From Patescibacteria group bacterium (lineage in GTDB: Bacteria; Patescibacteriota; Minisyncoccia; UBA6257; UBA9933), in contig JBBTYQ010000001.1 of assembly GCA_038078555.1 (NCBI GenBank), positions 60,966-124,965 on the forward strand: DNA of 64,000 nt, in the 5' to 3' direction. This document shows positions 1,541-49,264 of this stretch, piece by piece. The notes beneath the pieces are model-generated. The model was not told the origin of the DNA, ran no database searches, and was given only the letters and a program-made list of their open reading frames with translations. Position 1 is the stretch's first letter. Every line of letters begins with the position of its first letter. A program made the translations under genes and the position numbers.

Positions 1541-4500
1541 CTACTCCCCTATCTTCAACCAATTCCTATTCATAATGGAGAAGTCTATGGAATTAACTAT
1601 AGTGTCTTTGTTGATGTCAGAGATTGGGTCTGATAGAAACCATTTGGAAGATAACATGGAGTAATCAAGAGAATTGATGACATTGTCTTGATTTAAGTCT
1701 CCGGCTGGTAAGGTTGGAATAGTGATGGTTGAGTTATTGGTAAGACTGATATTAGTTTGTTTTTTGGATAAGTAATAAGGTGATGATACTTTAACGTCGT
1801 AAGTGCTTGGAGCAATGGTTATTGAAGATAAAGTTATTGAGTTAGCAGTCGGGTTTTGAGTTGCGGTGTAGATTGCGGTTGAAGAACCCGGATTGTAAAT
1901 AGAGATGGTAAAGCTGTTGGAATTAATAGTAGTGTTTCTTTCAAGAGATAGGTTGAAAGAAACATTGGAGGTAGTGGAGACTGGCGGAGCTTGAGTCGTG
2001 GCTGAGGCTGATACTGATTGAGCTGATACATTATTTGCGGCGTCATAAGCGGAAACCGTATAAGAGTATGAAGTGCTTGGAGATAAGCCGGTGTCTGAAT
2101 AACTGGTAGTATTGGAAGTTCCAATTTGCGTACCTCCCCGATATATTCTATAGCCTGTTACTCCGACGTTATCAGTCGAAGCAATCCAAGAGAGATTAAT
2201 TTGAGTTGAAGAGATTGCAGTGGCTGATAGGTTTGTGGGTACTGATGGAGCCGTGGTGTCAGAAGGCGGCGGAGGCGGGATGACTGAACCAGTATAATTA
2301 GAAACACTGGAAAGTTCTTGCAAGGAAAGAATTCTATTATAAATCATTACTTCGTCGATTTTTCCGTTAAATGCTTGAGAACCGCTTGTAAAGGCGCCGA
2401 TTATAAAATTACTGGCTGAATCGTCAGTGGGAGCGCCGCTGCCTATTGATCTTGAAGTATAAGCGGTCTCGCTTACGCTTCCACCTGAAGGCGCGGTATA
2501 AAATCTTATGCCGTCAGCGCTGGAAAATGTTATAGCCGCAAACTGCCAGGCGCCCAGCGTGATGGAATCACTGGCCGCCACGGTTGACGCAATTCCATTT
2601 GCTCTTGTAATAAACGAGGAGAAAGTATTTGGTGTTTGAAGTTTTGTTCTTTTGTATTCGGTTGTTAAAGTGGCCTTATTAAATAATCTTCCGGATGAAC
2701 TGCCTCCCAAAGTATTGGGTAAAATCCACATGGTAATGGTAAAAGGGTCTAAATTATCCATGATTGTCGGACTGCCCAAGTCAACCATGTCGTTTACTCC
2801 GTCAAAGTTTATGGCTCCATTTACTTTTCCGGTTGTCCAGGTCGGTCCATTGGTCAATGTTCCGCTGTTGTTACTTGAAGAATCATTGGCAATTAAGCCG
2901 CTTCCTTCGTCAAAATTCCAATAGCCTATTAAGTTAGAAGGTAGCTGACTTGAACCTCCTGCTAAAGCCACGGAAAAAGATATTAGATAATCATCAGGAT
3001 TAGAATTATTGGATTGGTCTTGGCATCTGATGTAATAGGAGTAAGCTGAACCGCTTGATAAACCTGTTATCAAGACTGAATGATTGGTTGAGTTGGTAGT
3101 GGAGAAAGTATTGGGTATTGAGGCGTATGAAGTATTTGCCGTAGTTGAATATTTGCAAGTGGCAGTTTCATTGGTTGATAAGGATAAGGTAGTTTGAGTG
3201 GTTGAAGAAGGCAGACTGCCTGATGGAGCTCCACTTGATCTTACAGGAGGAGTGATGTCAGCTGTCGGAGCTTGAGTTGTAGCTGAGGCTGAACTTGATT
3301 GAGCTGATACATTACCAGCCGCGTCATAAGCGGCAACTGTATAAGAGTAGGCTGTAGAAGCCGTAAGTCCGGTATTTGAATAAGTTGTATTGGCGGTGGT
3401 AGCAATTTGCGTACCTGCTCGATATATTCTATAGCCTGTTACTCCGACATTATCAGTAGAAGCAGTCCAAGAAAGATTAATTTGAGATTGGGAGATTGCA
3501 GTGGCGGATAAGCCAGTGGAAACTGAAGGAGCGGTAGTATCAGAAGGCGGTGGTGGTGGTGGCGGCAGAGTTCCCGAACAAGTTGATAAAAGACCGATAC
3601 ATTCAGTGCCTGTTTGATAAGCGCCCATTACTTGACTCGAGCGTCCATTGGCCGGATATGAAGTTCTTTTGAAATCAGCGGGTTGATTGAATGTTCCAGA
3701 AGAATTAAGAAAATTAGGATTTGTTGTTATAGAGTTTTCATCGCAATTTATTCCGGTCGTACAACCAGCCCCAGCCAAAAAAGATTTCCAAGCCGAAAGA
3801 GTGGTTCCTTTGGAAGAACCGTTTACCCACCAACTAGTATTGCCGGCTCCGCTGTAATAATCGTTGTAATCTATATAATCAAAATCAGAGATCGTCCAGT
3901 TGGAAGAATCAAAACCCAAAAAATTTCCGCCTGTAGCATGATAATGAATATTATTCCAAAAATGAGACGCCTGAGACGTGCTTTGCCAATAACCGATGTC
4001 TCTGATATTGTTGTAAAACGTATTATTCCTTACGTAAAAGTAATTAGGCGCCCCGTTAGCCACGGAAACAGCCGTGCCGTTGTTTATAAAAACATTCTGA
4101 TAAATATCCGACCAATCAATGCCTACTTGAGTGTCTCCTTCAATTCCTTGAGGCATATTATGAAAAAAATTATAGCGCGCAGTCATTTGATTACCGCGGT
4201 CTTTCCACTTTATGCCTGTATTAAGGCCATCATAGAATTCGTTATTCTCTAAAATCATGCCTTTTGTCCCGTATGTTAAAATAAGAACGTCATTTCCCGA
4301 CCCTTGGGCCATTGCAGGCAAATTGTCGTGAATTTTATTATTTCGAACAAGCAAGTTTTCCATCCAGTCTGTAGGCGTTGTATTGGGAGGATTGCCTGTG
4401 GTGCGGATAACTGCGGGAAATCCCTGATAATCGCCACCGCCAGATAAATCGTTATTCTGTATAATAGAATTATCTCCGCCAGCGCCGACGTGAATATTAC

Positions 4501-4933
4501 CCCAGACATAAAATCCATCAATCGTAACATTGGCCGCGCCGATGGAAATCGTTTTGCAAAATCCGCAAGTGTTATAAACATTGCTTGAATGATTATTTGT
4601 GCTGGAGATCCAGACTACTTCTCCTGGCGCGGCTTTCCAGGTTGTATTTGCCACCGTGGCCTGAATGGCAGCGGCTGTGGTTCCGCTGGTATAAACCGCT
4701 CCGCCGGCTCGGGCATGCACGATTACCGTATCGCCGGGAACAACTCGCGTTCCCGCGTACCAAGGAGTTTTCCAAGGAGTAGACGCTGAACCGTTGTTAG
4801 TATCGCTGCCATTGTCATAATCAACATGATAAGTGGCGGCTTGAACGCTTAAAGTACTAAATAAAATTCCGAAAAATAAAAGCAACGCGAAAAAACCGAA
4901 CCATTTTAATTTTGTTAAAATCATTGCAAGCAC
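1541..4933 (-). CDS. Large secreted multidomain surface protein: signal peptide, right-handed beta-helix region, FN3-like domain, concanavalin/LamG-like lectin domain, second FN3-like domain, Ig-like segment, C-terminal dockerin-like repeat pair
   Basis: 1130 aa with an N-terminal hydrophobic signal peptide. Parallel beta-helix style motifs (NNDLSGGG, NNKIHDN, many N/G-rich turns). Two near-identical modules of about 100 aa begin PPPPSDTTAPSV..INLSW.ASTDNVGVTGYRIYR. (FN3-like). The MVDLGSP..FTITMWI segment is typical of the LamG/ConA-like fold. The C-terminus GDLNQDNVINSLDYSMLSSKWF...SDINKDTIVNSIDFSIMNRNWL resembles a dockerin Ca-binding repeat pair. Confidence 0.75.
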   Translation of the reverse strand: MLAMILTKLKWFGFFALLLFFGILFSTLSVQAATYHVDYDNGSDTNNGSASTPWKTPWYAGTRVVPGDTVIVHARAGGAVYTSGTTAAAIQATVANTTWKAAPGEVVWISSTNNHSSNVYNTCGFCKTISIGAANVTIDGFYVWGNIHVGAGGDNSIIQNNDLSGGGDYQGFPAVIRTTGNPPNTTPTDWMENLLVRNNKIHDNLPAMAQGSGNDVLILTYGTKGMILENNEFYDGLNTGIKWKDRGNQMTARYNFFHNMPQGIEGDTQVGIDWSDIYQNVFINNGTAVSVANGAPNYFYVRNNTFYNNIRDIGYWQSTSQASHFWNNIHYHATGGNFLGFDSSNWTISDFDYIDYNDYYSGAGNTSWWVNGSSKGTTLSAWKSFLAGAGCTTGINCDENSITTNPNFLNSSGTFNQPADFKRTSYPANGRSSQVMGAYQTGTECIGLLSTCSGTLPPPPPPPSDTTAPSVSTGLSATAISQSQINLSWTASTDNVGVTGYRIYRAGTQIATTANTTYSNTGLTASTAYSYTVAAYDAAGNVSAQSSSASATTQAPTADITPPVRSSGAPSGSLPSSTTQTTLSLSTNETATCKYSTTANTSYASIPNTFSTTNSTNHSVLITGLSSGSAYSYYIRCQDQSNNSNPDDYLISFSVALAGGSSQLPSNLIGYWNFDEGSGLIANDSSSNNSGTLTNGPTWTTGKVNGAINFDGVNDMVDLGSPTIMDNLDPFTITMWILPNTLGGSSSGRLFNKATLTTEYKRTKLQTPNTFSSFITRANGIASTVAASDSITLGAWQFAAITFSSADGIRFYTAPSGGSVSETAYTSRSIGSGAPTDDSASNFIIGAFTSGSQAFNGKIDEVMIYNRILSLQELSSVSNYTGSVIPPPPPSDTTAPSVPTNLSATAISSTQINLSWIASTDNVGVTGYRIYRGGTQIGTSNTTSYSDTGLSPSTSYSYTVSAYDAANNVSAQSVSASATTQAPPVSTTSNVSFNLSLERNTTINSNSFTISIYNPGSSTAIYTATQNPTANSITLSSITIAPSTYDVKVSSPYYLSKKQTNISLTNNSTITIPTLPAGDLNQDNVINSLDYSMLSSKWFLSDPISDINKDTIVNSIDFSIMNRNWLKIGE
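1975..2290. repeat. DNA-level copy B of the intragenic FN3-module repeat; partner at about 3245-3570
   Basis: Both copies encode nearly identical protein segments (poly-Pro, SDTTAPSV...TGYRIYR...ATTQAP). The nucleotide sequences are visibly similar. Confidence 0.6.
3245..3570. repeat. DNA-level copy A of the intragenic FN3-module repeat
   Basis: See the partner copy at 1975-2290. Confidence 0.6.
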
Positions 4934-11841: not shown

Positions 11842-12309
11842 ATGAAAACGCTGAAAGCAACTCTTTTTTTCCTCTTCTCCGCTTTCTTGCTTGGCTGCGC
11901 GCCTTATGATCAGTTGATTGTCCGGCCGGACATTTATGTTTCCGGCGACTTTAGAGGACCGCGCAGTCCCTACTCGAACTTTTATGACTACGGATTATAT
12001 TTCCCGTATGTCACGATTGTTCCGGTAAACGGAACGCCTTTTGAACTGGAAATATTCATCAACGGCAAACGAGCTGATATTTCGCTTGAAGGCAGCGTTA
12101 AGACAAAACGGATTCCGCCCGGAATGCCGGCTCAAATAAAGGCTTTTGTTGATTACCGCGTCAGCCGTCAGTTATCGGTAGTTGCCGTGGCTTACAAAAG
12201 CAATAAAGTTGTCGGCTCGGCAAACAGAGTGTTTTATTTTTACGGCCATGCCAACGCCGAACAAGTTGAGGACTGGCCGATACGCATCTGGGATCTCCGT
12301 GACCCGTGA
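11842..12309 (+). CDS. Lipoprotein of unknown function
   Basis: 155 aa. The signal peptide ends in lipobox LLGC. Confidence 0.55.
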   Translation: MKTLKATLFFLFSAFLLGCAPYDQLIVRPDIYVSGDFRGPRSPYSNFYDYGLYFPYVTIVPVNGTPFELEIFINGKRADISLEGSVKTKRIPPGMPAQIKAFVDYRVSRQLSVVAVAYKSNKVVGSANRVFYFYGHANAEQVEDWPIRIWDLRDP

Positions 12310-29008: not shown

Positions 29009-30664
29009 ATGATTTTCGGACTTATCAAACTTTTTAAGTCTTTCTCGCGGAAAGAAATTATTGTTTTTGTTGTACTTTTTTTGGCATTTTTAGTTTCTGC
29101 TTCCTTGTTGCTTGCAAAATTTATCAGCGTTAATACTAAAATTTTGGCGGTTAGCGGAGGAAAATACGCGGAAGGAGCGGTAGGGCAACCGGCTTTTGTT
29201 AATCCGGTTTTGGCTTCAACTGATGTTGACAGAGATTTAGTTGAGCTTATTTTTAGCGACCTGGAGCGCATGGCGGAAAATTATAAGTCAGATGAAACCG
29301 GGAAAATTTGGCGCTATCGGCTTAAAGAAAACCTGTTTTGGCACGATAATAGGCCGATTACCAGCGATGATATAATTTTCACTATTGAGGCGATTAAGAA
29401 TCCCGATTCTTATTCCCCTCTTTTTATAAGCTGGCAGGGCGTTTCTGTTAATCGAATCAGCGAGCGCGAGATTGAGTTTAAATTGCCCGGATCTTATGTT
29501 TTTTTTAAAGATGCTTTGCGTGGCTTAAAGCCGATTCCTAAGCATATTTTTGCTGATATTCCAGCGGCTAATTTTCGGCTTTCCAATTATAATCTTGAGC
29601 CCATTGGAAGCGGGCCGTTTAAATTCGCCGGGTTTAAGAAAAAATCAGACGGCTATATTGTTTCTTATGATTTGGCTAAAAATGAAAATTATTTCGGAGA
29701 CAAAGCTTACTTGGACGGATTTAGTTTTGTTTTTTATACCGATGAATCTAGCTTGGTAAAGGCTTTTAATATGGGCATTATTGACGGCTTGGGCAATGTC
29801 AGCAAAGAAAGTCTTGGCAAAATTAATTTTCCAAGCAAAATTTTTTCTTTCAGAATGCTTAAATACTATGCGATTTTTTTAAATCCTTATGCCCAGCAGG
29901 GTCTAAAGGATAAAAATGTGAAAATGGCCTTAAGTTTAGCGATAGATAAAAATAAAATCATCGAAAAATCTTTTGGTCGTTATGCAGTGCCTGTTGCCGG
30001 GCCGTTAGTTGATGGAGCTGATGGATTTTCTAGCCTTGTTTATCCGGAAGAGATTTTTTCTTTGGAAAAATCCGTTCAAGTTTTTGAAGCCTCTGGTTGG
30101 ACTCTAGGCGAAGATAATATCAGGCAAAAGCAGTTTGGCAATGAGCTTGTCAGGTTGGATTTTAATTTGGTGGTGCCCAATAATCAGTTTCTGGTTGAAA
30201 CCGCTAATTTGATAAAAGAAGACTGGTTTAAAGCGGGCGTAAAATTAAATCTTTCTATCCTCCCGCTTTCGAGCATCAACGGCGATATTATTAAAAACAG
30301 AGATTATCAAATGATTCTGTTTGGAAATATAATAGGAGAAAGCCCGGATTTATTTTCCTTTTGGCATTCTTCGGAAAGATTTTATCCGGGTTATAACTTG
30401 GCGCTTTATGAAAATAAGTCGGCGGATAATCTAATAGAATTAATAAGAAAAAATTTTAACGATGAGAAAAGATATTCCGATTTGGCAAGTTTGCAGTCGC
30501 TGATTATCGGCGACCAACCCGCGTTTTTTCTTTATTCCCCTAATTATGTTTATGTCAGCAAGAAAAAACTTGGCGGCTTGGAGGAATATGCCATTTCTCT
30601 GCCCAGCGATCGGTTTAAGAACGCTGAAAAATTGTTTGTGAAAACAGCAAGAGCGCTGAAATAA
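29009..30664 (+). CDS. Membrane-anchored extracellular solute-binding protein, family 5 (peptide/nickel OppA/DppA-like); orphan
   Basis: 551 aa. N-terminal TM anchor. The length and motif pattern are typical of the SBP_bac_5 fold. Confidence 0.65.
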   Translation: MIFGLIKLFKSFSRKEIIVFVVLFLAFLVSASLLLAKFISVNTKILAVSGGKYAEGAVGQPAFVNPVLASTDVDRDLVELIFSDLERMAENYKSDETGKIWRYRLKENLFWHDNRPITSDDIIFTIEAIKNPDSYSPLFISWQGVSVNRISEREIEFKLPGSYVFFKDALRGLKPIPKHIFADIPAANFRLSNYNLEPIGSGPFKFAGFKKKSDGYIVSYDLAKNENYFGDKAYLDGFSFVFYTDESSLVKAFNMGIIDGLGNVSKESLGKINFPSKIFSFRMLKYYAIFLNPYAQQGLKDKNVKMALSLAIDKNKIIEKSFGRYAVPVAGPLVDGADGFSSLVYPEEIFSLEKSVQVFEASGWTLGEDNIRQKQFGNELVRLDFNLVVPNNQFLVETANLIKEDWFKAGVKLNLSILPLSSINGDIIKNRDYQMILFGNIIGESPDLFSFWHSSERFYPGYNLALYENKSADNLIELIRKNFNDEKRYSDLASLQSLIIGDQPAFFLYSPNYVYVSKKKLGGLEEYAISLPSDRFKNAEKLFVKTARALK

Positions 30665-30689
30665 TTTTTATTTGTAAATAATAATATTT

Positions 30690-30775
30690 GCCCCCGTGGC
30701 GGAACTGGCAGACGCGTACGCTTCAGGAGCGTATAGCCTATGGCTGTAGAGGTTCAAGTCCTCTCGGGGGCACCA
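30690..30775 (+). tRNA. tRNA-Leu (anticodon CAG), type II with long variable arm, CCA encoded
   Basis: Acceptor gcccccg/cgggggc, 3-bp D stem gcg/cgc, anticodon stem tacgc/gcgta with loop ttCAGga, variable hairpin agcc-tat-ggct, T arm agagg-ttcaagt-cctct, 3' end acca. Confidence 0.85.
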
Positions 30776-30937
30776 AACTGGATATAGAGAAATACTTTTG
30801 GGCCAAGTATTTTACGCTGGCAAAAAAACATTAAATTAAAAAATAAAATATAATAAAAAAAACGAAACATTGATTTTGCGAGAACGACAAAATTAATCTG
30901 TCATCCTCGTAATCAATTAATGATTTCGCATTATTAA

Positions 30938-32659
30938 ATGATTAAGCAAAAAATAATTAAACCGATTCGTAAAGCTGTCACAGTACCAGTAAAAGAAAAT
31001 GAAGCAGTGCGTTTTGTCGCTTTGGGCGGATTGGAAGAAATCGGCCGCAATATGATGTTTTTCGAGCATAAAGATGAGATTGTTATTATTGATGCCGGCT
31101 TGCAATTTCCTGAAGAAACTACTCCGGGCATCGATTTTATTATCCCCAATGTTTCTTATTTGGAGGCAAAAAAGAAAAACATAAAAGCCTTGGTTATTAC
31201 TCACGGGCATTACGATCACATTGGTGCCATTCCTTATATTATGGAAAAAATCGGCAACCCCACTATTTATACTACGGCTTTAAATAAAGCTATTATCAGC
31301 CGGCGTCAGGAAGAATTTACAAATGCGCCGAAGATTGATTTTGAATTGATAAAAGCCGGAGAAACCCGTCAATTATCGGAGCATTTCAAAGCGATATTTT
31401 TCGGCGTTGCTCATACTATTCCCGACAGCATCGGCGTTATTCTGGATACGCCCGCCGGAAATATGGTTTATCCCGGAGATTTTAGGCTTGATTATGATAT
31501 TGATGGAAAGCCGAAAGATATGGAAGTTTGGAAATTCATAAGCGAACATAAAATTCACTCGTTATTTTTAGATTCCACTGGAGCGGATAAAGAAGGTTAT
31601 TCTATTTCGGAAAGAGTTGTGGAGGCGGAAATCGAAAAAATTTTCAAAAAATCAGACGGCCGCATTATCATCGGAACATTTGCTTCGTTGCTGGAACGAT
31701 TGGCGGAAATTATAAAAATCTCGGAACGCCACAACCGGAAAGTATTTATCAGCGGTTTTTCAATGAAAGCCAATATTCAAATCGCCCAAAGTCTGGGCTA
31801 TATGAAAATTAAAAAAGAAACAATTATTCCTTTGGAGGAGATTAATAAATATCGGGACGATAAAATCGTGGTGTTATGCACCGGCGCTCAAGGAGAGCCA
31901 AATGCAAGCTTAATGCGCATTGCCAATGGCGAACACAAGCAAATTCAAATTAAAAAAGGCGACACCATTATTCTGTCGTCTTCAATTGTGCCCGGTAATG
32001 AGCGCAGTGTTCAGATTTTAATGGACGACATTTCCCGTCAAGGCGGCATTATTTATCATTCCAAAATGGTTGATATCCACTCCAGCGGCCATGCGCCTCA
32101 AGAAGAATTGAAAATAGTGATGAAAACAATAAAGCCAAGATTTTTTATTCCCGTGCACGGTTATTATTTCATGCGCTGGAGAAGTACTCAGCTCGCTCAA
32201 GAAACTTTAAAGCTTAAAGAAGAAGAAACTGTTTTGGTTGATAACGGCCAAGTTGTTTCTTTAACAAAAAATTCAGCTACTATTACCGAAGAAACAGTGC
32301 CGATTTATTATGTGATGGTTGATGGACTAGGAGTGGGCGATGTTGGCGAGGTGGTTTTAAGAGACCGAAGAGTATTGGCTCAAGAAGGCATGGTGGTGAT
32401 TATTACCACATTAGACCGGAAAACCGGACGATTTTTGAAAAATCCGGATATTATTTCCCGCGGATTTATTTATCTTAAAGAAAATAAAGAATTAGTGGAA
32501 GAATTAAGAAAACGCATTCGCGGACTTATTAGCCGCGTTCCTTATCAGCAAATTGAAGCTGATTATCTTAAGGCGATGATGCGCGATCAATTAGGCCAAT
32601 TTCTTTATACTAAGACCAAACGCCGGCCGATGATTTTGCCGGTAGTTATTGAAGTATAG
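30938..32659 (+). CDS. rnj: Ribonuclease J
   Basis: 573 aa. N-terminus ALGGLEEIGRNMMFFEHKDEIVIIDAGLQFPEE and ITHGHYDHIGAIPY are RNase J MBL motifs. Beta-CASP and C-terminal domain are present. Confidence 0.85.
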   Translation: MIKQKIIKPIRKAVTVPVKENEAVRFVALGGLEEIGRNMMFFEHKDEIVIIDAGLQFPEETTPGIDFIIPNVSYLEAKKKNIKALVITHGHYDHIGAIPYIMEKIGNPTIYTTALNKAIISRRQEEFTNAPKIDFELIKAGETRQLSEHFKAIFFGVAHTIPDSIGVILDTPAGNMVYPGDFRLDYDIDGKPKDMEVWKFISEHKIHSLFLDSTGADKEGYSISERVVEAEIEKIFKKSDGRIIIGTFASLLERLAEIIKISERHNRKVFISGFSMKANIQIAQSLGYMKIKKETIIPLEEINKYRDDKIVVLCTGAQGEPNASLMRIANGEHKQIQIKKGDTIILSSSIVPGNERSVQILMDDISRQGGIIYHSKMVDIHSSGHAPQEELKIVMKTIKPRFFIPVHGYYFMRWRSTQLAQETLKLKEEETVLVDNGQVVSLTKNSATITEETVPIYYVMVDGLGVGDVGEVVLRDRRVLAQEGMVVIITTLDRKTGRFLKNPDIISRGFIYLKENKELVEELRKRIRGLISRVPYQQIEADYLKAMMRDQLGQFLYTKTKRRPMILPVVIEV

Positions 32660-32710
32660 TTCGTTAGCTTGATAGATCGTTAGCTTGGCAGCCTATTAAA
32701 ATAAGTTAAT

Positions 32711-34003
32711 TTATTTCCCCTCTCCTCTCTTCTTTTTATTCTCTTTTTGTTCGAAAATTTTAATCACGCCGTATTCGCCGTCATAGCCAGGACGGATTTT
32801 TACTCTGCCTTCTCTTACGCGTTTTATGCCTTCGGCAATACGGCCGTCAGTTGACGACTTAAGTTCGTTTTCATTTACGTTTAGTAGGATATTCAATTCA
32901 TTATTAAAATTTTTAATGAGCTTATCGTATTCTTTCTTTACTGCTTTGGTTTTGACGCCCGCATCAAATACTTCGGCAATGATTTCATCAAGCTTAATGA
33001 GATTGTAATATGGGATACGATTGTTATGTTGGTGAAAATTAGTGCCGGAAGAAATTTTTATCTCCGGCCGGTCGGCTAATTGTTTTATGCGATTCATTAC
33101 TCCGATAGTCAAAGGTTTGCCGCATACAGGGCAAAGACCGCCATGTTTTTTTGTTTCTTCCGGATTAAAAACAATTCCGCATGCGCGATGGCCGTCAAAA
33201 TGGTATTTACCCTCCTCTGGAAAAAATTCTATAGTGGCGATGAATTTTTTAGGGTCTCGGGATTTGATTGCTTTGATTATTCCCGCATAAGAAAGTTCTG
33301 TATCAAAAATATTCGCTTCTCGGCCAATGCGTTCCAAGCTATGGGAATCGGAATTGGAGATAAAAGAGATATTGTCTAGCTTTGATAAGCGCCAGTTCAT
33401 AGCCGGGTCGCTGGATAGCCCCGTTTCAATAGCAAAAATATTTTTTGAGTATTTTCCGAAACATTCCTTAATAGAATCAAAACCGCTCATTGAGCCGAAA
33501 ACAGAAAACCATGGAGTCCATGCATGAGCCGGAATAATTACCGCCTCGGGATTAACGGTAAAAACAATTCTTGCCAATTTTTCGCTATCAAGCCCTAAAA
33601 TCGGCCGGCCGTCGGATTTCAAATTGCCGATATAGGAAAGCTGAGCGTTGATTTTTTCTGCCGTTTCAATATCAGGCGCAAAAACCAAGTTATGAACTCT
33701 CCGCGTTTTTCCTGCTCTGGAATAAATGCCGGATATTTCCACGCTTAACAAAAATCTAGTATTGCTGAAAGTTCCTTTAATCGTTTCTTTCTTATATTGA
33801 TTTTTTAATTTAAAAAGACCCGGTTCGGCTGGCTCAAGTTTTTCTTTTATTTCTCCTAGCCATTTTGGATGAGTAAAGTCCCCTGTTCCCATCACAAGAA
33901 TTCCCTTGTCGTCAGCCCAAGCGTCAAGACTTTCTAAATTCATTGATTTGCTGGTGGCGCGGGAGTATTTGGAATGGATATGAAGGTCCGCGATAAATTT
34001 CAT
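32711..34003 (-). CDS. PHP-domain protein of the endonuclease-Q-like (TIGR00375) family
   Basis: 430 aa. N-terminal PHP motif DLHIHSKYS. C-terminal Zn finger GGLCPVCGK. Confidence 0.5.
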   Translation of the reverse strand: MKFIADLHIHSKYSRATSKSMNLESLDAWADDKGILVMGTGDFTHPKWLGEIKEKLEPAEPGLFKLKNQYKKETIKGTFSNTRFLLSVEISGIYSRAGKTRRVHNLVFAPDIETAEKINAQLSYIGNLKSDGRPILGLDSEKLARIVFTVNPEAVIIPAHAWTPWFSVFGSMSGFDSIKECFGKYSKNIFAIETGLSSDPAMNWRLSKLDNISFISNSDSHSLERIGREANIFDTELSYAGIIKAIKSRDPKKFIATIEFFPEEGKYHFDGHRACGIVFNPEETKKHGGLCPVCGKPLTIGVMNRIKQLADRPEIKISSGTNFHQHNNRIPYYNLIKLDEIIAEVFDAGVKTKAVKKEYDKLIKNFNNELNILLNVNENELKSSTDGRIAEGIKRVREGRVKIRPGYDGEYGVIKIFEQKENKKKRGEGK

Positions 34004-34115
34004 TTTTAAATTTTATCACAAAAAACGTTAAAGAGCGTTAAAAGGCTAAAAGGCAAAGGCACCGAGCCATTTTTTGATTCTCTGATTATAGGTTTTGCTC
34101 GAACAAGTTAGTTCT

Positions 34116-34185
34116 GGTGCCGAGGGCGGGACTTGAACCCGCATGCCTTACGGCGCTAGCTCCTAAAGCTAGTGCGCCCCGCACT
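34116..34185 (-). tRNA. 3' portion of a tRNA-Leu(TAG)-like gene (D-stem 3' strand, anticodon arm, long variable arm, T arm, acceptor 3' strand, encoded CCA). It has no adjacent 5' acceptor strand
   Basis: Minus-sense sequence gtgcggggcgc a ctagc-tttagga-gctag cgccgtaaggcat gcggg-ttcaagt-cccgc cctcggc a cca. The anticodon loop ttTAGga gives anticodon TAG. The matching 5' strand gccgagg is found about 180 nt upstream. Confidence 0.4.
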
Positions 34186-34187
34186 AA
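34177..34187. repeat. Left arm of an 11-bp inverted repeat (TTAGTGCGGGG/CCCCGCACTAA) flanking the embedded tRNA
   Basis: The plus strand reads ccccgcactaa here. Its reverse complement ttagtgcgggg recurs at 34297-34307. Confidence 0.6.
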
Positions 34188-34209
34188 ATTTTTAAACTTT
34201 GCTTACTTG

Positions 34210-34292
34210 TGCCGGAGGAGAGATTTGAACTCTCACGAGCTTACGCTCACAGCGCCCTAAACGCTGCGTGTCTGCCATTTCACCACTCCGGC
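34210..34292 (-). tRNA. tRNA-Leu (anticodon TAG), type II, complete cloverleaf, no encoded CCA
   Basis: Minus sense: gccggag tg gtg-aaatggcaga-cac g cagcg-ttTAGgg-cgctg tgagcgtaagctcgtg gagag-ttcaaat-ctctc ctccggc a. Confidence 0.8.
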
Positions 34293-34296
34293 AAAA

Positions 34297-34307
34297 TTAG
34301 TGCGGGG
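34297..34307. repeat. Right arm of the 11-bp inverted repeat
   Basis: ttagtgcgggg on the plus strand. Confidence 0.6.
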
Positions 34308-34344
34308 TAAATCTGCCAGCCTGCCCCGTATACAGCTTTGCTGT

Positions 34345-34368
34345 TCTGCGGGGTTTCGCCACCTCGGC
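34345..34368 (-). other. Orphan tRNA 5' segment (acceptor 5' strand gccgagg, nt 8-9 tg, D-stem 5' strand gcg) that matches the 3' portion at 34116-34185
   Basis: The minus-sense start gccgaggtggcgaaaccccgcag is collinear with the 5' end of type-II Leu tRNAs (compare gcccccgtggcggaa in the Leu-CAG gene). A -10-like tatact lies about 12 nt upstream. Confidence 0.35.
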
Positions 34369-34442
34369 TTTATTGACTTCAGTATAAATAGATGTTTTGT
34401 TTAATCAAGCACCTTAACTTTAACAAAAATGGAGAGCCTAAG

Positions 34443-34811
34443 ATGGAAGAGATAAAAGAGACGAAAGGAGGAATTGAGGTCAGAGAAACGGCAAGATCGC
34501 TTAAAAATAAATTTATAGCCCTTGTTCAGAAATATTGTCCCAATTTTCAAGTAGACGACGGCATAGAAAACCTCGCTTTTTTTAAAAAAGAAAGTTTATT
34601 TTCAAAAATTTTTATCGGCAAAGAAAAATCAGTTATGTATGTGTTTCGTTTGGACGGAAATATTGGAGGTTTGGATCTTTTCGAAGCCGGAGAATGGTCG
34701 GATATAAAAATTGTGGCTGAAGAGGAAAAATATCTTGTTGGTGTTATAAAGATTGCCGGTGAGTATGGAAAAATCAGCGGGAAAAGAGTGGTTATTGATA
34801 GAAGTTTTTAA
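34443..34811 (+). CDS. Hypothetical protein; start taken at the internal Met with SD ggagag
   Basis: About 123 aa with no recognisable motifs. The track ORF begins at 34392, which would overlap the tRNA promoter region. Confidence 0.4.
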   Translation: MEEIKETKGGIEVRETARSLKNKFIALVQKYCPNFQVDDGIENLAFFKKESLFSKIFIGKEKSVMYVFRLDGNIGGLDLFEAGEWSDIKIVAEEEKYLVGVIKIAGEYGKISGKRVVIDRSF

Positions 34812-34962
34812 TTTTCGGAAATTTATTTAAATATGCCAGGCATTGCTTGGCATATTTTATTTATTGACTTTTGCAAAGAAGTATGGTATATTTAAAACTT
34901 AAATAAGCTCTTTAACACTAAGTCAATAAGGAAGAAATGATATAAAAACAACTTAAAGGAGG

Positions 34963-36174
34963 ATGTTTATGAATGGCGAGAAAATAAAGAGTTTTGGCAA
35001 AGTTTTTTGGGGACCAGTGGTGATTGTTTGCGGAGTTTCTTTTTTTCTTGATCTTGTTTGGTTATCAAGATACTCAATGTCAGGAGAAGCGTTTGGTTTA
35101 GATATAAAGTGGAACTGGGGTTTGGCCGCGTTTCTTGCTCAATTGTTTTATCTTATAGCCAGTCTTCGGATGGTTGGACCTACGGAACTCGGGGCAAGGC
35201 TTTTTTTCGGAAAGCCTTTAAGCGAAATTTCATCTGGCTTGGTTTTTATTCCATTCGGGATTTGTGAGCTTAAGACAGAAACTCGGCTTACAATTCAGGA
35301 TGAAATTCCTGGTCCGCCCGAGCGCATCTGGAGAGAAAAGAAAGGGGAAGAAGGAGGAGAAGTTCCTTTAGGATATGTCCCTCCCATTAGGATTCCCTTC
35401 GGGTTTCCAAGAAGCGCAAAAGATCTCAAGGATTTAAGCATCAAGACTCCGGGGGGAGATGGGAAGCATTTAGATGCTCCGCCTGAAAATGATGCGCTCA
35501 ATATCAGAATTACAGCTGAAGTTGTTCCGGTAATACGTTGGCGAATTTCGGACTATCTTAAATTTTTAACCACAATCGGAAGCAGAGAAGAGGCGCGCAG
35601 GCAATTAGAAGACTGCGCTGTCGGCTCTCTTATAAGAGAATTTGCTAAGATTGCGCCTGCAGTTGCCTTGGCGAATCTCGGGACATACAGCTTTAATCTA
35701 GGAAAAGAAATAGAAGAACGGATTAAAGGATGGGGCATCGAGTTGGTGAGCTCTCAGATCAAAATGATTCAGTTTCATCGCGACTTGAATGAAGCCATAA
35801 GTAAGGTGTCGCAGGCAAAACTTGAAGCCGAAGCTCTTATTGCTTCGGCTGAAGCAAGAAAAAAAGAAGAACATCTTTTAGGTGAAGGAAAAGGAGCTGC
35901 GGAAAAAGCTGTACTTGACGGAAGAACGGAAGGTTTAAGAAATATGATAAAAGCGCTTGAAGTGCCGGCGCAGGTTATAATCGGCGCAGAAACAGCCAGG
36001 AAGATTACAGAAAATCCGGGTCAGAAAACAATAGTTGCCGGATCAGCTGGATTTGCTGATCTTATGGCAATAGGTTCTGTTTTAGGAGAGTCTCTCAAGG
36101 GAGAATCTCCAAAAAAAGAGTCTCTTAAGAAAGATTTTAAGAAAGAAGAGAATAAAAAGGAGGAGAAAAAATGA
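34963..36174 (+). CDS. SPFH/band-7 (stomatin/flotillin/HflKC-like) membrane protein
   Basis: 403 aa. N-terminal TM. SPFH core GLVFIPFGICELKTETRLTIQDE ... NIRITAEVVPVIRWRISDYLKF ... REEARRQLEDCAVGSLIREF. Ala/Glu-rich coiled coil AKLEAEALIASAEARKKEE. Strong SD aaaggagg. Local GC is visibly higher than in neighbouring genes. Confidence 0.65.
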   Translation: MFMNGEKIKSFGKVFWGPVVIVCGVSFFLDLVWLSRYSMSGEAFGLDIKWNWGLAAFLAQLFYLIASLRMVGPTELGARLFFGKPLSEISSGLVFIPFGICELKTETRLTIQDEIPGPPERIWREKKGEEGGEVPLGYVPPIRIPFGFPRSAKDLKDLSIKTPGGDGKHLDAPPENDALNIRITAEVVPVIRWRISDYLKFLTTIGSREEARRQLEDCAVGSLIREFAKIAPAVALANLGTYSFNLGKEIEERIKGWGIELVSSQIKMIQFHRDLNEAISKVSQAKLEAEALIASAEARKKEEHLLGEGKGAAEKAVLDGRTEGLRNMIKALEVPAQVIIGAETARKITENPGQKTIVAGSAGFADLMAIGSVLGESLKGESPKKESLKKDFKKEENKKEEKK

Positions 36175-36716
36175 GATTGGAGATGATTGTCTTCTTTGGT
36201 GCATTAGCGGCGATGATTTTTTATATGCTTCGCCGTCAAAGAATCAGAACTAAAGAAGCTAAAACAAATGGGCAGATAGGACCTGAAAAGCCAGCTAAGG
36301 ATGTTGTTAAAAAAGAAAAGAAAAAAAGCAGCATTTTTGGCACGGTGATAGTTCTTCTGATACTCGTACCTATCGGTTATTTGGGGTATGAGAAGTTAAG
36401 AGAAACTCAGCCGAGAACGCAGGCGATGGAATACGCGCTTTGCGCCGGAGGCGTTTATGACTTTGCCAATAACAAAATTCCTGGTAAAGTGCGAGTTGTT
36501 TTTAGGAATGATTGCTGGACTCAAGTAACTCTTCCTGCCACGGTAAGAGCCAGGACCGATTTCGACACAGATGCCGAGCTTGTTTTCATCGACGGAGCGC
36601 GGTATGTCGACGGTCCGGGCCGTCAGATATGGTACGGGAAATTCAGTCGCGAACTTTTTAAAGTTCGCGGAATAACTTCAAATGGGATTTTAAAAATCTC
36701 GTTTGAAGTAAGGTAG
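36171..36716 (+). CDS. Membrane protein translationally coupled to the SPFH gene (ATGA overlap); possible NfeD-like partner, function unknown
   Basis: 181 aa. Two TM helices, then a Cys-containing soluble C-terminal domain. Confidence 0.45.
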   Translation: MRLEMIVFFGALAAMIFYMLRRQRIRTKEAKTNGQIGPEKPAKDVVKKEKKKSSIFGTVIVLLILVPIGYLGYEKLRETQPRTQAMEYALCAGGVYDFANNKIPGKVRVVFRNDCWTQVTLPATVRARTDFDTDAELVFIDGARYVDGPGRQIWYGKFSRELFKVRGITSNGILKISFEVR

Positions 36717-36751
36717 TAAGAAAAAAAGAAAGGAGAGTGATAAAAATCAAA

Positions 36752-36786
36752 AGCCCCCGCATTTTATTGCGAGGGCTTTTTTATTT
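36752..36786. terminator. Bidirectional terminator
   Basis: aaaagcccccgcattttattgcgagggctttttt. Confidence 0.55.
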
Positions 36787-36809
36787 AACTGTAAAAACTA
36801 AAAACTAAT

Positions 36810-37166
36810 TTATCCTAAGAAGTTTGCCACAATTCTGTCTAAGGCAAATGCCAGAAGCGCAACAACTATTGCTATTGCGGCGTAAATAATTTGGTTTTTT
36901 GCATTGCCGACTTTTTCCGGATCGCCTCCGGATGTCAAATAAGTGAATGCCGCAAAAAGAATAAAGAACGCGGCAACCACAAAGAAAAGCGTATAAACCC
37001 AGCCTAAAATTCTCGTTACCACCGCATATAATCCCTGAATGTCGCTTATATTAGAAGGATTCGGCGCTCCGCCTCCGGGAAGAGGTGGTATTGTCAAAGC
37101 TAATGATGAGCTTGCGAATATCGATAAGCCGATAAGGACAGTTAATAAAATTAGGGAAATTTTCAT
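36810..37166 (-). CDS. Pilin-like small secreted two-TM protein, paralog 4 (VirB2/TrbC-like topology; putative T4SS-type pilin)
   Basis: 118 aa. Signal peptide, then TM1 LFFVVAAFFILFAAFTYL, loop TSGGDPEKVGNAKNQ, TM2 IIYAAIAIVVALLAFAL. Confidence 0.55.
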   Translation of the reverse strand: MKISLILLTVLIGLSIFASSSLALTIPPLPGGGAPNPSNISDIQGLYAVVTRILGWVYTLFFVVAAFFILFAAFTYLTSGGDPEKVGNAKNQIIYAAIAIVVALLAFALDRIVANFLG

Positions 37167-37237
37167 TGAAATTTTTATAACTTTTATAATTACGAGCCTG
37201 ATATGTTCTCGACCTTTTTAATCTATAAATTATAGCA

Positions 37238-37585
37238 TCATTGCAGGAATTTACTAATAATTACGTCAAAACTGAACGCTAATAAAGCTACTATAATGGC
37301 AATCACCGCATAAAGAATCCGCTTATTGGATTCTGTGATTTTTGTCGGGTCGCCTTGGGCGGTTAAATAAGAGAAAGCGGCTATAATAATAAAAAAAGCC
37401 GCAACAATGAAAAATAGCGTATAAGCCCAACCGAGAATTTTTTCAAAAATGCGGAATATGTCATTAAAACTTTTTATCGGCGAATCAGAAGGCGCGCCAG
37501 CCGCATTGATAAAAAAGATAGGGATAAAAATCAATAAGGCAGATAGCGAGAGTTTTTTAAAATATTTCTTGGATAATATTGTCAT
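37238..37585 (-). CDS. Pilin-like small secreted two-TM protein, paralog 3
   Basis: 115 aa. ...ILGWAYTLFFIVAAFFIIIAAFSYLTAQGDPTKITESNKRILYAVIAIIVALLAFSF.. is about 70% identical to paralog 4 over the core. Confidence 0.55.
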   Translation of the reverse strand: MTILSKKYFKKLSLSALLIFIPIFFINAAGAPSDSPIKSFNDIFRIFEKILGWAYTLFFIVAAFFIIIAAFSYLTAQGDPTKITESNKRILYAVIAIIVALLAFSFDVIISKFLQ

Positions 37586-37592
37586 AAAAAGT

Positions 37593-37955
37593 TTAAATTA
37601 ATTTTGCTCCTAAGGCTTCTTGAATAATGTAAATTACGCCCCACGAACAGATGATAACGGCATAACCTATTGCGGCCCACATAATTGTCTTCCTTCCGCT
37701 TATTACTTGATCCGGCTTGTCGCCGGCGGTAAGTATCAAAAATCCGCCGTAAAGCACCATTAAAGCGACAATTGGGGCGCCGAGCTTGATTAAATAGCCG
37801 ATAATTCTTTGAACTAATTGAAGAAAAGTTTGGTCTTGCAAAGGATCTCTTAATCCTCCTGTTTCAAGAACTCCGGCAGCCAAAGCTGTTTGAAGCGAAA
37901 AGAAATAAGCAGAAACAAAAAACGATAAAATGTATTTTTTTGAGAAATTACCCAT
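37593..37955 (-). CDS. Pilin-like small secreted two-TM protein, paralog 2
   Basis: 120 aa. Signal peptide. ...LMVLYGGFLILTAGDKPDQVISGRKTIMWAAIGYAVII.. Same topology and the same LT(A/S)xGD motif. Confidence 0.5.
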   Translation of the reverse strand: MGNFSKKYILSFFVSAYFFSLQTALAAGVLETGGLRDPLQDQTFLQLVQRIIGYLIKLGAPIVALMVLYGGFLILTAGDKPDQVISGRKTIMWAAIGYAVIICSWGVIYIIQEALGAKLI

Positions 37956-38025
37956 TTATTTTATTATTTGATAATTGATATTTAAAGTCAATCCCGCGCG
38001 ATTTATGATTTTGTGGCACAGATAT

Positions 38026-38436
38026 TTAACAGTGGATTGCCGTTCTTATTTCCAATGGATTAAACGGCTGGCCGGTTAAAAGCATAAGCAATTCTTTGAT
38101 TATCAGCCAGGCGGCTAGCGCTATTAAGAGCCCGATTACCGCGGCTTTAATAACATCTCCCCCTCTTTTGAGTTCGCTGGCAGAGTCTCGGCTTATCATA
38201 ATTACAAAACCGCCGTAAATTATGAAAATAACTGTTAAAGGAATAGCAACGCTATAAAGCGCAAAATTTATAATATTTTCTCCGAGAGTCAGTAAATCGC
38301 AAAACTTGCAACTTGCTCCTTCGCAAGGAATAAGCCCGGCGGCGCTTGCCATAAAAGGAGAATTTAAAATCGTAAACAAAAAAATAACAGCATAAAAAGC
38401 AAAAATTTTAAATTTTAAATAATTTTGACTTTTCAT
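38026..38436 (-). CDS. Pilin-like small secreted two-TM protein, paralog 1 (more divergent, Cys-containing)
   Basis: 136 aa. Signal peptide. ...FIIYGGFVIMISRDSASELKRGGDVIKAAVIGLLIALAAWLI... Confidence 0.45.
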   Translation of the reverse strand: MKSQNYLKFKIFAFYAVIFLFTILNSPFMASAAGLIPCEGASCKFCDLLTLGENIINFALYSVAIPLTVIFIIYGGFVIMISRDSASELKRGGDVIKAAVIGLLIALAAWLIIKELLMLLTGQPFNPLEIRTAIHC

Positions 38437-47797: not shown

Positions 47798-49264
47798 ATG
47801 GATAATAACAGCGAAACAACTTTATTCGGAAAAACTACTTTTAGAAATCAAATGGTTCGTTTTGGCATCAAAACCGACGATCGTCGCCGGCATGTTTATA
47901 TTGTTGGTAAAACCGGTGTCGGCAAAACAACGCTTTTGGAGAGTTTGACTATAGCTGACATTAGAGCTGGCCGCGGTTTGGCTGTGGTTGACCCTCACGG
48001 CGAGTATGCTGAACGAATGTTGGAATTTATTCCGGAAAATAGAATTGACGATGTTATTTATTTTAACCCGGCTGACCTTAGTAATCCGATTGCTTTTAAT
48101 CCCCTGGAGTCAATTGACCCGGAATATCGCCATTTAGTTGCCTCAGGCATTATGGGCGTGTTTAAAAAAATTTGGCCCGATGTTTGGTCAGCCAGAATGG
48201 AATATATATTAAACAACGCTCTTGTGTCGCTTTTGGAATATCCCGGCGCAACTTTGCTTGGCATCATGAGAATGCTTTCGGAAAAAGATTATCGAGCTAA
48301 GGTGGTGGAAAATTTGAAAGACCCGGTTGTAAAAGCTTTCTGGGTTAATGAGTTCGCCCGTTATACTCAAAGACTTGAAACCGAAGCAGTAGCGGCTATT
48401 CAAAACAAAGTCGGCCAATTCGTGACTAATCCTATGGTGAGAAATATTATAGGCCAGCCTCATTCCACTATCGATATGAGAAAAATAATGGATGAAGGAA
48501 AAATTTTAATTGTTAATCTTTCTAAGGGAAGAATCGGCGAAGATAATTCAGCTCTTTTGGGAGCAATGATGATTACCAAGCTTCAGTTGGCGGCTATGTC
48601 GAGAGTTGACACGCCGATGGAAAAGCGCCGTGATTTTTATCTTTACGTTGACGAATTTCAGAATTTTGCCACCGAATCTTTCGCTGATATTTTATCGGAA
48701 GCGAGGAAATACCGCCTTAATTTAATCTTGGCCCATCAATATATTGAACAGCTTTCCGAAGAAGTTCAGGCTGCTGTTTTCGGCAATGTCGGCACCTTGG
48801 TTTGTTTTAGAGTCGGCGCCACAGATGCTGAATTCCTGGAAAAAGAATTAATGCCGGAATTTAATGCTCAAGACTTAGTCAATTTGTCAAAATATAATAT
48901 TTATTTGAAGCTGATGATTGACGGCATGGCTTCCAAGGCTTTTTCCGCTCAGACTCTTGACCCGTTTGAGCCGGCCATAGAATCTTTTAAAGACGTTATT
49001 ATTCAAAACAGCCAAAACAAATACGGCGTCCCCCGTTCTATTATTGAAGAAAAAATCGCTGAAGAGTGGAAATCTGAAGCGAAAATTTTTGAAGATAAAA
49101 CTTTGCGCCGCAGCGAACAGCCTCTTTCCAAAATTCTTACTCCTCAAGGCGTACCTTTTAAAAAAGAAGCTGCACCTTCAAGAGAAAGAGAAAAAAAAGA
49201 AGTTGATGTTGATGAATTAAGGAGAGCGATAGAGGAATCGTTAAGAAAAAGAGAAGATAAATAA
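47798..49264 (+). CDS. Soluble P-loop ATPase of the VirD4/TraD/TrwB (FtsK-HerA superfamily) coupling-protein type
   Basis: 488 aa. Walker A GKTGVGKTTLLE followed by VVDPHGEY. Walker B FYLYVDEFQNF. ARKYRLNLILAHQYIEQL matches the RK(F/Y)G...Q...QL signature of TraD/TrwB/VirD4. No TM segments. Confidence 0.5.
   Translation: MDNNSETTLFGKTTFRNQMVRFGIKTDDRRRHVYIVGKTGVGKTTLLESLTIADIRAGRGLAVVDPHGEYAERMLEFIPENRIDDVIYFNPADLSNPIAFNPLESIDPEYRHLVASGIMGVFKKIWPDVWSARMEYILNNALVSLLEYPGATLLGIMRMLSEKDYRAKVVENLKDPVVKAFWVNEFARYTQRLETEAVAAIQNKVGQFVTNPMVRNIIGQPHSTIDMRKIMDEGKILIVNLSKGRIGEDNSALLGAMMITKLQLAAMSRVDTPMEKRRDFYLYVDEFQNFATESFADILSEARKYRLNLILAHQYIEQLSEEVQAAVFGNVGTLVCFRVGATDAEFLEKELMPEFNAQDLVNLSKYNIYLKLMIDGMASKAFSAQTLDPFEPAIESFKDVIIQNSQNKYGVPRSIIEEKIAEEWKSEAKIFEDKTLRRSEQPLSKILTPQGVPFKKEAAPSREREKKEVDVDELRRAIEESLRKREDK

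Follow-up and report, generated by a model that had tools for sequence, protein, structure and literature searches.

Introduction

Does a small group of G+C-rich genes beside a tRNA gene mark DNA that has arrived from elsewhere, or can such genes belong to the resident genome? This question is raised by a locus in a 64,000-nt stretch of DNA from a Patescibacteria group bacterium (GenBank assembly GCA_038078555.1, contig JBBTYQ010000001.1, positions 60,966 to 124,965), which is analysed here as a whole, is called the window, and supplies all coordinates given without a locus number. A preliminary description of this DNA had proposed that three plus-strand genes next to a tRNA-Leu gene, one of them encoding an SPFH protein, were acquired horizontally. 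Our analysis indicates that the locus is probably a native, vertically inherited two-gene SPFH operon of Patescibacteria (candidate phyla radiation, CPR) rather than an acquired island. Numbers beginning with L and P denote the loci and proteins that were compared with it.

SPFH proteins are universal membrane organisers and, to our knowledge, their clients are mostly unknown beyond the HflK/C-FtsH and stomatin-NfeD systems. In the present case, an SPFH gene has stayed coupled to what appears to be an undescribed partner family throughout a clade of bacteria that are uncultivated and probably episymbiotic, and the two genes offer a concrete and testable SPFH-client pair in CPR.

Organization of the locus

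Three plus-strand open reading frames (ORFs) fill positions 34392-36716, and the features on which the argument depends are as follows.

34443-34811, plus strand: ORF1, 122 amino acids, or 139 amino acids if started at 34392
34829-34857: terminator-like hairpin after ORF1
34864-34892, plus strand: promoter-like site downstream of ORF1 and upstream of the SPFH gene, TTGACT-17-TATATT plus a TG extension, agreeing with the consensus at 10 of 12 positions
34969-36174, plus strand: SPFH gene (Band 7, stomatin-like membrane scaffold), 401 amino acids, or 403 from the alternative ATG at 34963
36171-36716, plus strand: gene for the partner membrane protein, 181 amino acids
36749-36780, no strand assigned: terminator-like hairpin serving the SPFH-partner operon and the convergent pilin genes, 13-bp stem with 7 G-C pairs
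36810-38436, minus strand: four small T4SS-type pilin-like genes (118, 115, 120 and 136 amino acids), convergent to the SPFH-partner operon

The start sites of both operon genes can be refined by the position of their GGAGG boxes. The box ahead of the SPFH gene abuts the ATG at 34963 directly and lies 6 nt from the ATG at 34969, and the latter is favoured as the predicted start because of this spacing. The partner ATG overlaps the SPFH stop codon as ATGA (4 nt), an overlap that had been reported before and was verified in the sequence, and it is preceded by a GGAGG of its own 8 nt upstream. The NCBI record places the partner start at 36183, giving 177 amino acids; however, 36171 is preferable because the N-terminal motif MRxELIxFF is kept in homologues, and the spacing of the GGAGG agrees.

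The promoter and the terminator that the preliminary description had assigned to the genes were both located, at 34864-34892 and 36749-36780. The former is a match to the consensus alone, and such sites are no commoner in this region than in shuffled sequence. The hairpin at 36749-36780 was placed on the minus strand by the scan, is flanked by T runs on both sides, and could act in both directions; an equivalent hairpin is kept between L015 and L016 although the flanking coding DNA diverges. With a promoter-like site between ORF1 and the SPFH gene and a hairpin belonging to ORF1 itself, the predicted transcription unit therefore comprises two genes and not three. All three of the ORFs described previously are present, but ORF1 stands outside the unit, as judged from its own hairpin, its lower G+C content and its character as a lineage-specific orphan.

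ORF1 itself was the only sequence recovered in a word-index search for its homologues among 5.8 billion proteins, and it had no match in Pfam, NCBIfam, PADLOC, PHROGs or the PDB. It does not occur at this position in any relative examined, where the space between tRNA-Leu and the SPFH gene, which ORF1 fills here, is an intergenic gap of approximately 150-380 bp. The gene upstream in L016 was considered as its counterpart and rejected, as the two are unrelated and the L016 gene encodes TGT. ORF1 thus appears to be a separate unit, a lineage-specific orphan outside the conserved module, and if anything at this locus is lineage-specific, the comparisons point to ORF1.

Conservation of the locus in relatives

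More than 150 homologues of the SPFH protein were found at 39-66% identity, and those that carry a name come almost always from metagenome-assembled genomes (MAGs) of Patescibacteria, Parcubacteria, Wolfebacteria or Pacebacteria, with a few probable mis-binnings. The gene order SPFH, partner (with a 4-nt overlap in most cases) and convergent T4SS_pilin genes recurs at 41-66% SPFH identity. The compared loci are given below with the identity of their SPFH protein; SBP_bac_1 and gyrA were assessed only where the contigs extend that far.

L005: SPFH 63%; protein in the partner position 180 amino acids, 4-nt overlap; then pilins
L006 and L007: SPFH 57%; 172-174 amino acids, short gap; then pilin
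L008: SPFH 53%; 336 amino acids, overlap; then four pilins and SBP_bac_1
L010: SPFH 48%; 171 amino acids, overlap; then four pilins, SBP_bac_1 and gyrA
L011: SPFH 41%; 257 amino acids, overlap; then four pilins
L012: SPFH 56%; 177 amino acids, adjacent; then five pilin-like ORFs, an SBP-like ORF and a gyrA-like ORF (from sequences only)
L015 and L016: SPFH 66%; 248 and 252 amino acids, overlap; then pilins
L018: SPFH 62%; 171 amino acids, overlap; then pilins

In the window, the first two pilin genes match Pfam T4SS_pilin at E=1.5e-10 and 1.5e-7, and precomputed Pfam hits cover all four, the fourth weakly. The SPFH-partner pair was found at the syntenic site in every examined related contig of sufficient reach. 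Upstream of the SPFH gene, tRNA-Leu(TAG) is present in five independent contigs (L004, L005, L006, L008 and L010), and the protein-coding neighbours on this side differ by locus, with ORF1 in the window and an XerC-like recombinase, TGT, a tRNA array or a response regulator elsewhere.

These comparisons bear directly on the possibility that the three genes form a recently acquired mini-island of foreign DNA beside tRNA-Leu. The genes do adjoin a tRNA gene, as had been stated (tRNA-Leu(TAG), 34209-34292, minus strand), and the neighbouring tRNA locus is clearly rearranged, so that the locus resembles tRNA-linked genomic islands both in its position and in the disruption of the tRNA locus. It differs from them in that no integrase or other mobility gene is present, the tRNA 3' end is not duplicated at the far border of the genes, and the locus is not absent from relatives. 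The disruption also differs, as it consists of a 181-nt insert in a tRNA D-loop (a second tRNA and its flanks) on the side opposite to the SPFH-partner genes. No integrase, phage or defence family matched any of the three genes in Pfam, NCBIfam, PADLOC or PHROGs, and no att-like direct repeats flank them, the interval 34000-37300 holding low-complexity A-rich repeats only. Because the pair and its neighbours are syntenic in many diverged contigs, tRNA-linked acquisition of the SPFH-partner pair is not supported. The proposal of an acquired island is contradicted by this synteny, by the composition that orthologues share (see below) and by the lack of integrase and att repeats, and we consider it highly improbable.

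Two of the compared loci, L006 (P0010) and L013, show synteny of the Patescibacteria type and belong to MAGs labelled Spirochaetota and Ignavibacteriaceae, respectively. As judged by their gene order, both are probably mis-binned.

Base composition and codon use

The suggestion of foreign origin had rested in part on genes described as visibly richer in G+C than their surroundings and different in codon choice, illustrated by a 52-mer that lies at approximately 35311-35362 within the SPFH gene and encodes GPPERIWREKKGEEGGE. The G+C content (GC) of the window is 0.379, and its 57 ORFs have a mean of 0.377 with a standard deviation (sd) of 0.037 and a range of 0.285-0.481. The description holds for the SPFH gene (0.428, z ~1.4) and the partner gene (0.436, z ~1.6), which lie about 1.5 sd above the mean, but the excess is modest and ORF1 (0.343) falls below the mean. 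In the SPFH gene, GC at third codon positions (GC3) is 0.351 against an ORF mean of 0.355, while the values at first and second positions (GC1 and GC2) are 0.527 and 0.406 against means of 0.441 and 0.333; the excess reflects amino-acid composition, namely Gly, Ala, Glu, Arg and Pro. The window has its 1-kb GC maximum here (0.444 at 35001-36000), and 0.436 is reached twice elsewhere. Its core genes themselves span 0.285-0.44, for example dnaN (0.286), rnpA (0.285), tsaE (0.299) and gyrA (0.409), which further weakens the case for an island.

In a likelihood test of synonymous codon use (57 genes; mean -0.24, sd 1.37), the SPFH gene ranked first in atypicality (z=-3.05) and the partner gene third (z=-2.90), as the preliminary description had anticipated, but ORF1 is typical (z=-0.59, rank 24 of 57). 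GGC, ACC, TCC and CAA are rarer in the SPFH-partner pair, and GGA/GGG, ACA, CAG, AAG and CTT are commoner. The signature recurs in orthologues elsewhere, the codon bias in most of them: the GC of the SPFH gene exceeds that of the rest of its locus in nine of nine other loci, and the pair in other loci shows rarer GGC (7/8), rarer ACC (7/8) and commoner AAG (8/8). Higher GC and odd codon use appear to be intrinsic to the gene family across the lineages examined. The windowed statistics that had been called for thus do reveal a 1-kb GC maximum and codon outliers, and yet the deviation is probably a trait of the gene family rather than a mark of recent arrival, as most orthologues in other loci carry the same signature. 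With this, GC or codon deviation next to a tRNA is insufficient to call an island in these genomes.

Two other genes of the window are also compositionally unusual. The ORF at 11842-12309 (plus strand) has the highest GC of the window (0.481), with GC3 of 0.519, and takes second place for atypical codon use (z=-2.96). No Pfam family matches it, and foreign or non-coding DNA is a more plausible reading for this ORF than for the SPFH-partner genes. At 1541-4924 (minus strand), a gene with unusually high GC2 (0.522) and a codon z of -2.59 encodes an 1127-amino-acid protein with fn3, Laminin_G_3 and dockerin domains, which is probably a surface protein.

The SPFH protein

The identification of the protein of about 403 amino acids as an SPFH protein stands, on the basis of both sequence and fold. 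Pfam Band_7 (PF01145) matches residues 190-299 (E=4e-11, 43.7 bits against a cut-off of 23.6), and the family profile finds stomatin as the closest sequence in the PDB (3BK6, 2e-9), followed by QmcA, prohibitins and HflK/C. The equivalog models for HflK (TIGR01933, 18.1 against a cut-off of 159.4) and HflC (TIGR01932, 16.7 against 134.4) gave scores below their cut-offs. An AlphaFold2 (AF2) model with a predicted local distance difference test score (pLDDT) of 81 comprises helices at 11-36 and 52-67, an α/β domain at 68-266, a long helix of 60 residues at 273-332, in agreement with the coiled coil noted earlier, and further helices after it. A family-specific insertion of about 70 residues (~115-183) lies within the SPFH domain and contains an invariant PPxR..F motif. 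Foldseek matched the model to full-length HflK, HflC, stomatin, prohibitin and QmcA chains at E=1e-11 to 1e-7, and erlin and flotillin were also matched.

Two hydrophobic segments precede the SPFH domain in 19 of 27 homologues. Homologues carry many Lys/Arg residues at the N-terminus (mean 5.3) and few in the ~13-residue loop that separates the helices (0.9). Assuming that the short second helix crosses the membrane, we infer a topology in which the N-terminus lies inside, the loop outside and the SPFH domain in the cytoplasm.

The arrangement shares features with several known SPFH systems. As in the stomatin-NfeD operons (P. horikoshii PH1511/PH1510; E. coli QmcA-YbbJ, PDB 8Z5G), the SPFH protein is closest to stomatin, its gene is predicted to share a transcript with that of a small membrane protein built from N-terminal helices and a C-terminal β-domain, and the full-length fold of QmcA matches the SPFH model. 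Unlike in these operons, the partner is encoded downstream and lacks both an NfeD signature and an OB-fold, its β-domain is hypervariable and predicted to lie outside the cell, and the SPFH protein carries two N-terminal hydrophobic helices and the insertion of about 70 residues. In structure, the SPFH model comes closest to the HflK/HflC-FtsH cage (PDB 7VHQ, 7WI3, 9CZ2; E=7e-12), with which the system may share the principle of an SPFH cage around a membrane client. However, there is a single SPFH gene here rather than a K/C pair, the equivalog models are missed, no ftsH is adjacent, and the predicted orientation is cytoplasmic and not periplasmic.

A survey of SPFH subfamilies reported that only SPFH1, 2 and 5 pair with NfeD, while SPFH3, 4 and 6-12 do not (Hinderhofer et al. 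2009, PMC2636767), and an SPFH gene without NfeD is therefore not surprising in itself. The locus is like the latter subfamilies in that its SPFH neighbours are not NfeD; it differs in that the survey predates CPR genomes and that a specific, conserved and coupled partner family is defined here. It is this partner family and its behaviour that are new. A literature search for SPFH proteins of Patescibacteria found nothing relevant.

The partner family

The downstream protein had been described as a protein with two transmembrane (TM) segments, unlike a typical NfeD and perhaps a novel SPFH partner, and each of these points is supported and the last extended. From the N-terminus, it comprises TM1, which bears the conserved MRxELIxFF, then a loop rich in Lys/Arg, TM2 and finally a C-terminal β-domain of about 95 amino acids. 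The AF2 model (pLDDT 84, with 95-98 over most of the β-domain) places membrane helices at 3-32 and 54-77 and eight strands at 90-180 (~92 residues). A word-index homologue search returned the query alone; the family surfaced by exhaustive HMMER, which gave 47 cluster representatives, 24 of them at E <= 1e-10, with the C-terminal ~95 residues as the conserved part. The hidden Markov model (HMM) of the family matches the ORF that immediately follows the SPFH gene, both in the window and in eight other independent loci (E=1e-15 to 1e-45), two of which are partial or broken, L004 ending at the contig end and L013 being split over two frames. Adjacency to SPFH was read at the window and these eight loci, and the 47 representatives are known as sequences alone. 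From these searches, the partner appears to belong to an undescribed family, members of which lie directly downstream of SPFH genes at these loci.

It is possible that the partner is a highly diverged short-form NfeD and that the locus is a classical stomatin-NfeD operon. The partner shares with NfeD an operon with SPFH, N-terminal helices and a small C-terminal β-domain, although the first two features are not NfeD-specific, and NfeD2 proteins such as YuaF were recognised by structure only (PMC2636767). The C-terminal domain of NfeD is defined by an oligonucleotide/oligosaccharide-binding (OB) fold, a five-strand β-barrel (PMC4208085; PDB 2EXD, 2K12 as cited in PMC2636767), and the confident model of the partner is instead an eight-strand β-sandwich. 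Foldseek found for it only weak matches to cupin-like β-barrels and to the C-terminal domain of vitamin K-dependent carboxylase (E >= 5e-3), and no NfeD entry was within the top 50. None of 31 members of the family matched NfeD or another Pfam family, with no NfeD at E <= 1 among the best 25 of 69 Pfam families; nine isolated C-terminal domains gave no NfeD at E <= 10 and no match to another Pfam family; and the family profile matched no NfeD chain in the PDB at E <= 10 and gave no credible sequence match there. In addition, the β-domain is predicted to be extracellular, whereas the OB-fold of NfeD is cytoplasmic, and the partner gene lies downstream and not upstream. The partner thus does not appear to be an NfeD or a recognisable short form of it, judged by profiles and by the model, and we regard a diverged NfeD as very unlikely.

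The predicted orientation of the β-domain rests on two observations. In most members with two helices, the inter-helix loop carries 4-11 Lys/Arg, and no residues precede TM1. The domain also occurs in tandem, in 5-6 copies, in two long proteins, P0147 and P0151, of which the former scores above the threshold for a type IX secretion tail (Por_Secre_tail, 32.7 against 27 bits) and the latter just below it (26.9). Because of the positive-inside rule and these tandem copies in long proteins, one with a type IX tail above threshold, the β-domain most likely faces outward.

At L008 and L011 the downstream proteins are longer; they were considered as members of the family and rejected, as the partner HMM did not match them. 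The overlapping gene at these two loci appears to encode a small membrane protein that is either different or unrecognisably diverged.

Variability of the partner

In 28 pairwise comparisons between loci, identity averages 0.58 for SPFH proteins, 0.30 for whole partners and 0.27 for their C-terminal domains, and the identity of the C-terminal domain correlates little with that of SPFH (Pearson r=0.19). This value is set against a reported correlation of 0.26-0.91 between NfeD and SPFH trees (PMC2636767), which is a further point against a diverged NfeD.

Variability is also seen at the strain level. In L015 and L016, which derive from different studies, the DNA of the SPFH gene is 100% identical, as are the first ~200 nt of the partner gene. 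Beyond these, DNA identity drops abruptly, to about 40-55% in the C-terminal domain and to 32-60% over most of the remaining partner gene, with short conserved islands between, and it recovers at the terminator. The divergence (L015 1700-2710 against L016 2250-3260) spans the distal two-thirds of the partner gene and the N-terminal half of a pilin gene, which is itself a mosaic with identities of 0.43-0.98. The N-terminal anchor of the partner is almost unchanged while the remainder diverges. The L015/L016 site is a strain-level variability hot spot, and the pattern appears to reflect recombinational replacement of a surface-exposed module carried by a conserved anchor and scaffold.

The independent evolution of the C-terminal domain could also be explained if the partner had no relation to SPFH, for example as a stand-alone surface protein, and if the overlap of the two genes were mere packing in a small genome. 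CPR genomes are indeed compact and 4-nt overlaps are common in them. On the other hand, the two genes stay adjacent and overlapping even where SPFH identity has dropped to 41% and the genes upstream are different, the partner keeps its N-terminal anchor, which is nearly unchanged between L015 and L016, and a small overlapping membrane protein fills the slot even in L008 and L011. We therefore consider an accidental association unlikely, and favour a native operon in which the two products act together.

A model for the SPFH-partner operon

By analogy with HflK/C, stomatin and QmcA-YbbJ, the SPFH protein most likely assembles into an oligomeric ring or cage at the cytoplasmic side of the membrane, where it would enclose a patch of the bilayer. 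The partner gene is translationally coupled to SPFH through the ATGA overlap together with its own GGAGG. TM1, the basic loop and TM2 may sit in or at the SPFH ring, this anchor being the likely contact with the scaffold, and the variable β-domain would be displayed outside, near the products of the adjacent pilin genes. Recombination between close strains may then swap the β-domain while the SPFH gene stays unchanged, so that a diversifying module would be held in an SPFH microdomain.

Several points weigh against this account. The codon atypicality of the two genes, at ranks 1 and 3 of 57, could on its own suggest a foreign origin. The product downstream of SPFH in L008 and L011 is unlike the partner family, so that the pairing may extend over a class of small membrane proteins and not be confined to one family. 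The topology follows from sequence rules: were the second helix of the SPFH protein (~17 residues) to stop short of crossing the membrane, the SPFH domain would lie on the outside, as it does in HflK/C. We infer the oligomer and the SPFH-partner contact, as the structure models cover monomers alone, and the abrupt divergence of L015 and L016 concerns one pair of strains in metagenome assemblies.

Pilin genes are thought to be important to the cell-surface biology of these bacteria. It is conceivable, though we would not call it likely, that SPFH, partner and T4SS-type pilins together form one conserved surface module of Patescibacteria, in which the SPFH ring anchors a fast-diversifying ectodomain beside the pilins for host-cell contact or for evasion of phages that use it as a receptor, alleles being swapped by recombination while the scaffold is kept. 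If this were true, the partner would represent a new kind of SPFH client, a hypervariable surface protein rather than a protease or NfeD.

A gene for a VirD4/TraG-type coupling protein (TrwB_AAD_bind, T4SS-DNA_transf) was also observed at 47798-49264, 11 kb from the four pilin genes. Together with the pilin genes, it suggests a dispersed system that is type IV secretion-like or DNA-uptake-like.

The nested tRNA-Leu gene

The rearranged tRNA locus beside the operon is a separate lead that merits its own study. It consists of an intact tRNA-Leu(TAG) gene placed within the D-loop of another, with the following parts.

34209-34292, minus strand: inner, intact tRNA-Leu(TAG) (ARAGORN; Rfam tRNA, 51.6 bits)
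34118-34186, minus strand: 3' piece of the outer tRNA-Leu(TAG) (Rfam tRNA, 22.2 bits, model positions 8-63)
34354-34369, minus strand: 5' piece of the outer tRNA, GCCGAGGTGGCGAAAC, comprising the acceptor 5' strand and the start of the D-arm, read from the sequence
34177-34191 and 34293-34307, no strand assigned: 15-nt inverted repeat around the inner tRNA, 93% complementary
34408-34381, minus strand: promoter-like site just upstream of the outer tRNA 5' end

Read along the minus strand, the order is the 5' piece, a 60-nt spacer, the complete inner tRNA, a spacer of ~25 nt and the remainder of the outer tRNA; the insert thus comprises the inner tRNA and ~85 nt of flanks, and the outer pieces are otherwise perfect. 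The outer 3' piece holds the 3' strand of the D-stem, the anticodon arm, a long variable arm, the T-arm and the acceptor CCTCGGC-A-CCA, and it aligns with the syntenic tRNA of L004 and L006. The outer 5' piece is a perfect 7-nt complement of the 3' acceptor strand and is identical to the 5' end of the L006 tRNA. The interval 34115-34372 (minus strand) folds as a cloverleaf within a cloverleaf (z=-4.9). No G+C-rich repeat comparable to the one around the inner tRNA was found at the other three tRNAs of the window or at the orthologous tRNAs of L004, L005, L006 and L010.

The possibility of an assembly artefact was rejected on the strength of three assemblies with identical sequence, one of them an independent Logan assembly; the L019 type described below is likewise unchanged across five contigs of different runs. 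In a phage BLAST, the tRNA/ORF1 region gave only a 49-nt match, inside the outer 3' piece. Metagenomes were scanned for the nested pattern. A first pattern (gap 165-195) gave no matches, and eight of ten hits of a second pattern, as well as four of four hits in viral contigs, were rejected as chance matches in coding DNA. The scan found the nested tRNA-Leu(TAG) architecture in two other, unrelated lineages.

L019, 622-856, minus strand: nested tRNA, also in L029-L032; beside the genes for IF-2 and the CCA-adding enzyme
L024, 378-712, plus strand: nested tRNA with the same sequence as L033 4550-4884; beside bacterial 23S rRNA with a group I intron

Three levels of nesting are seen in L024, where the 5' pieces are duplicated and the fold has a z of -6.6. 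The position of insertion differs among the three cases, being the 5' side of the D-loop, the 3' side of the D-loop and the region from the D-arm to the variable arm. No account of this arrangement was found in a literature search on nested or split bacterial tRNAs. Our best guess from these sequences is that a promoter-less tRNA cassette inserts into its resident counterpart and would functionally replace it. If general, a tRNA nested within a tRNA would add a new way in which bacterial tRNA genes are disrupted and replaced.

Rearrangement is also visible on the far side of this tRNA locus. In L004 and L006, a gene for an XerC-like tyrosine recombinase ends 3-28 nt from the 3' end of tRNA-Leu(TAG). 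The window is without that gene and has in its place a PHP/MJ0043_C-like gene at 32711-34003. The block of SBP_bac_5, tRNA-Leu(CAG) and RNase J (29009-34003) is moreover inverted relative to L004 and L006, and this rearrangement may be linked to the disrupted tRNA.

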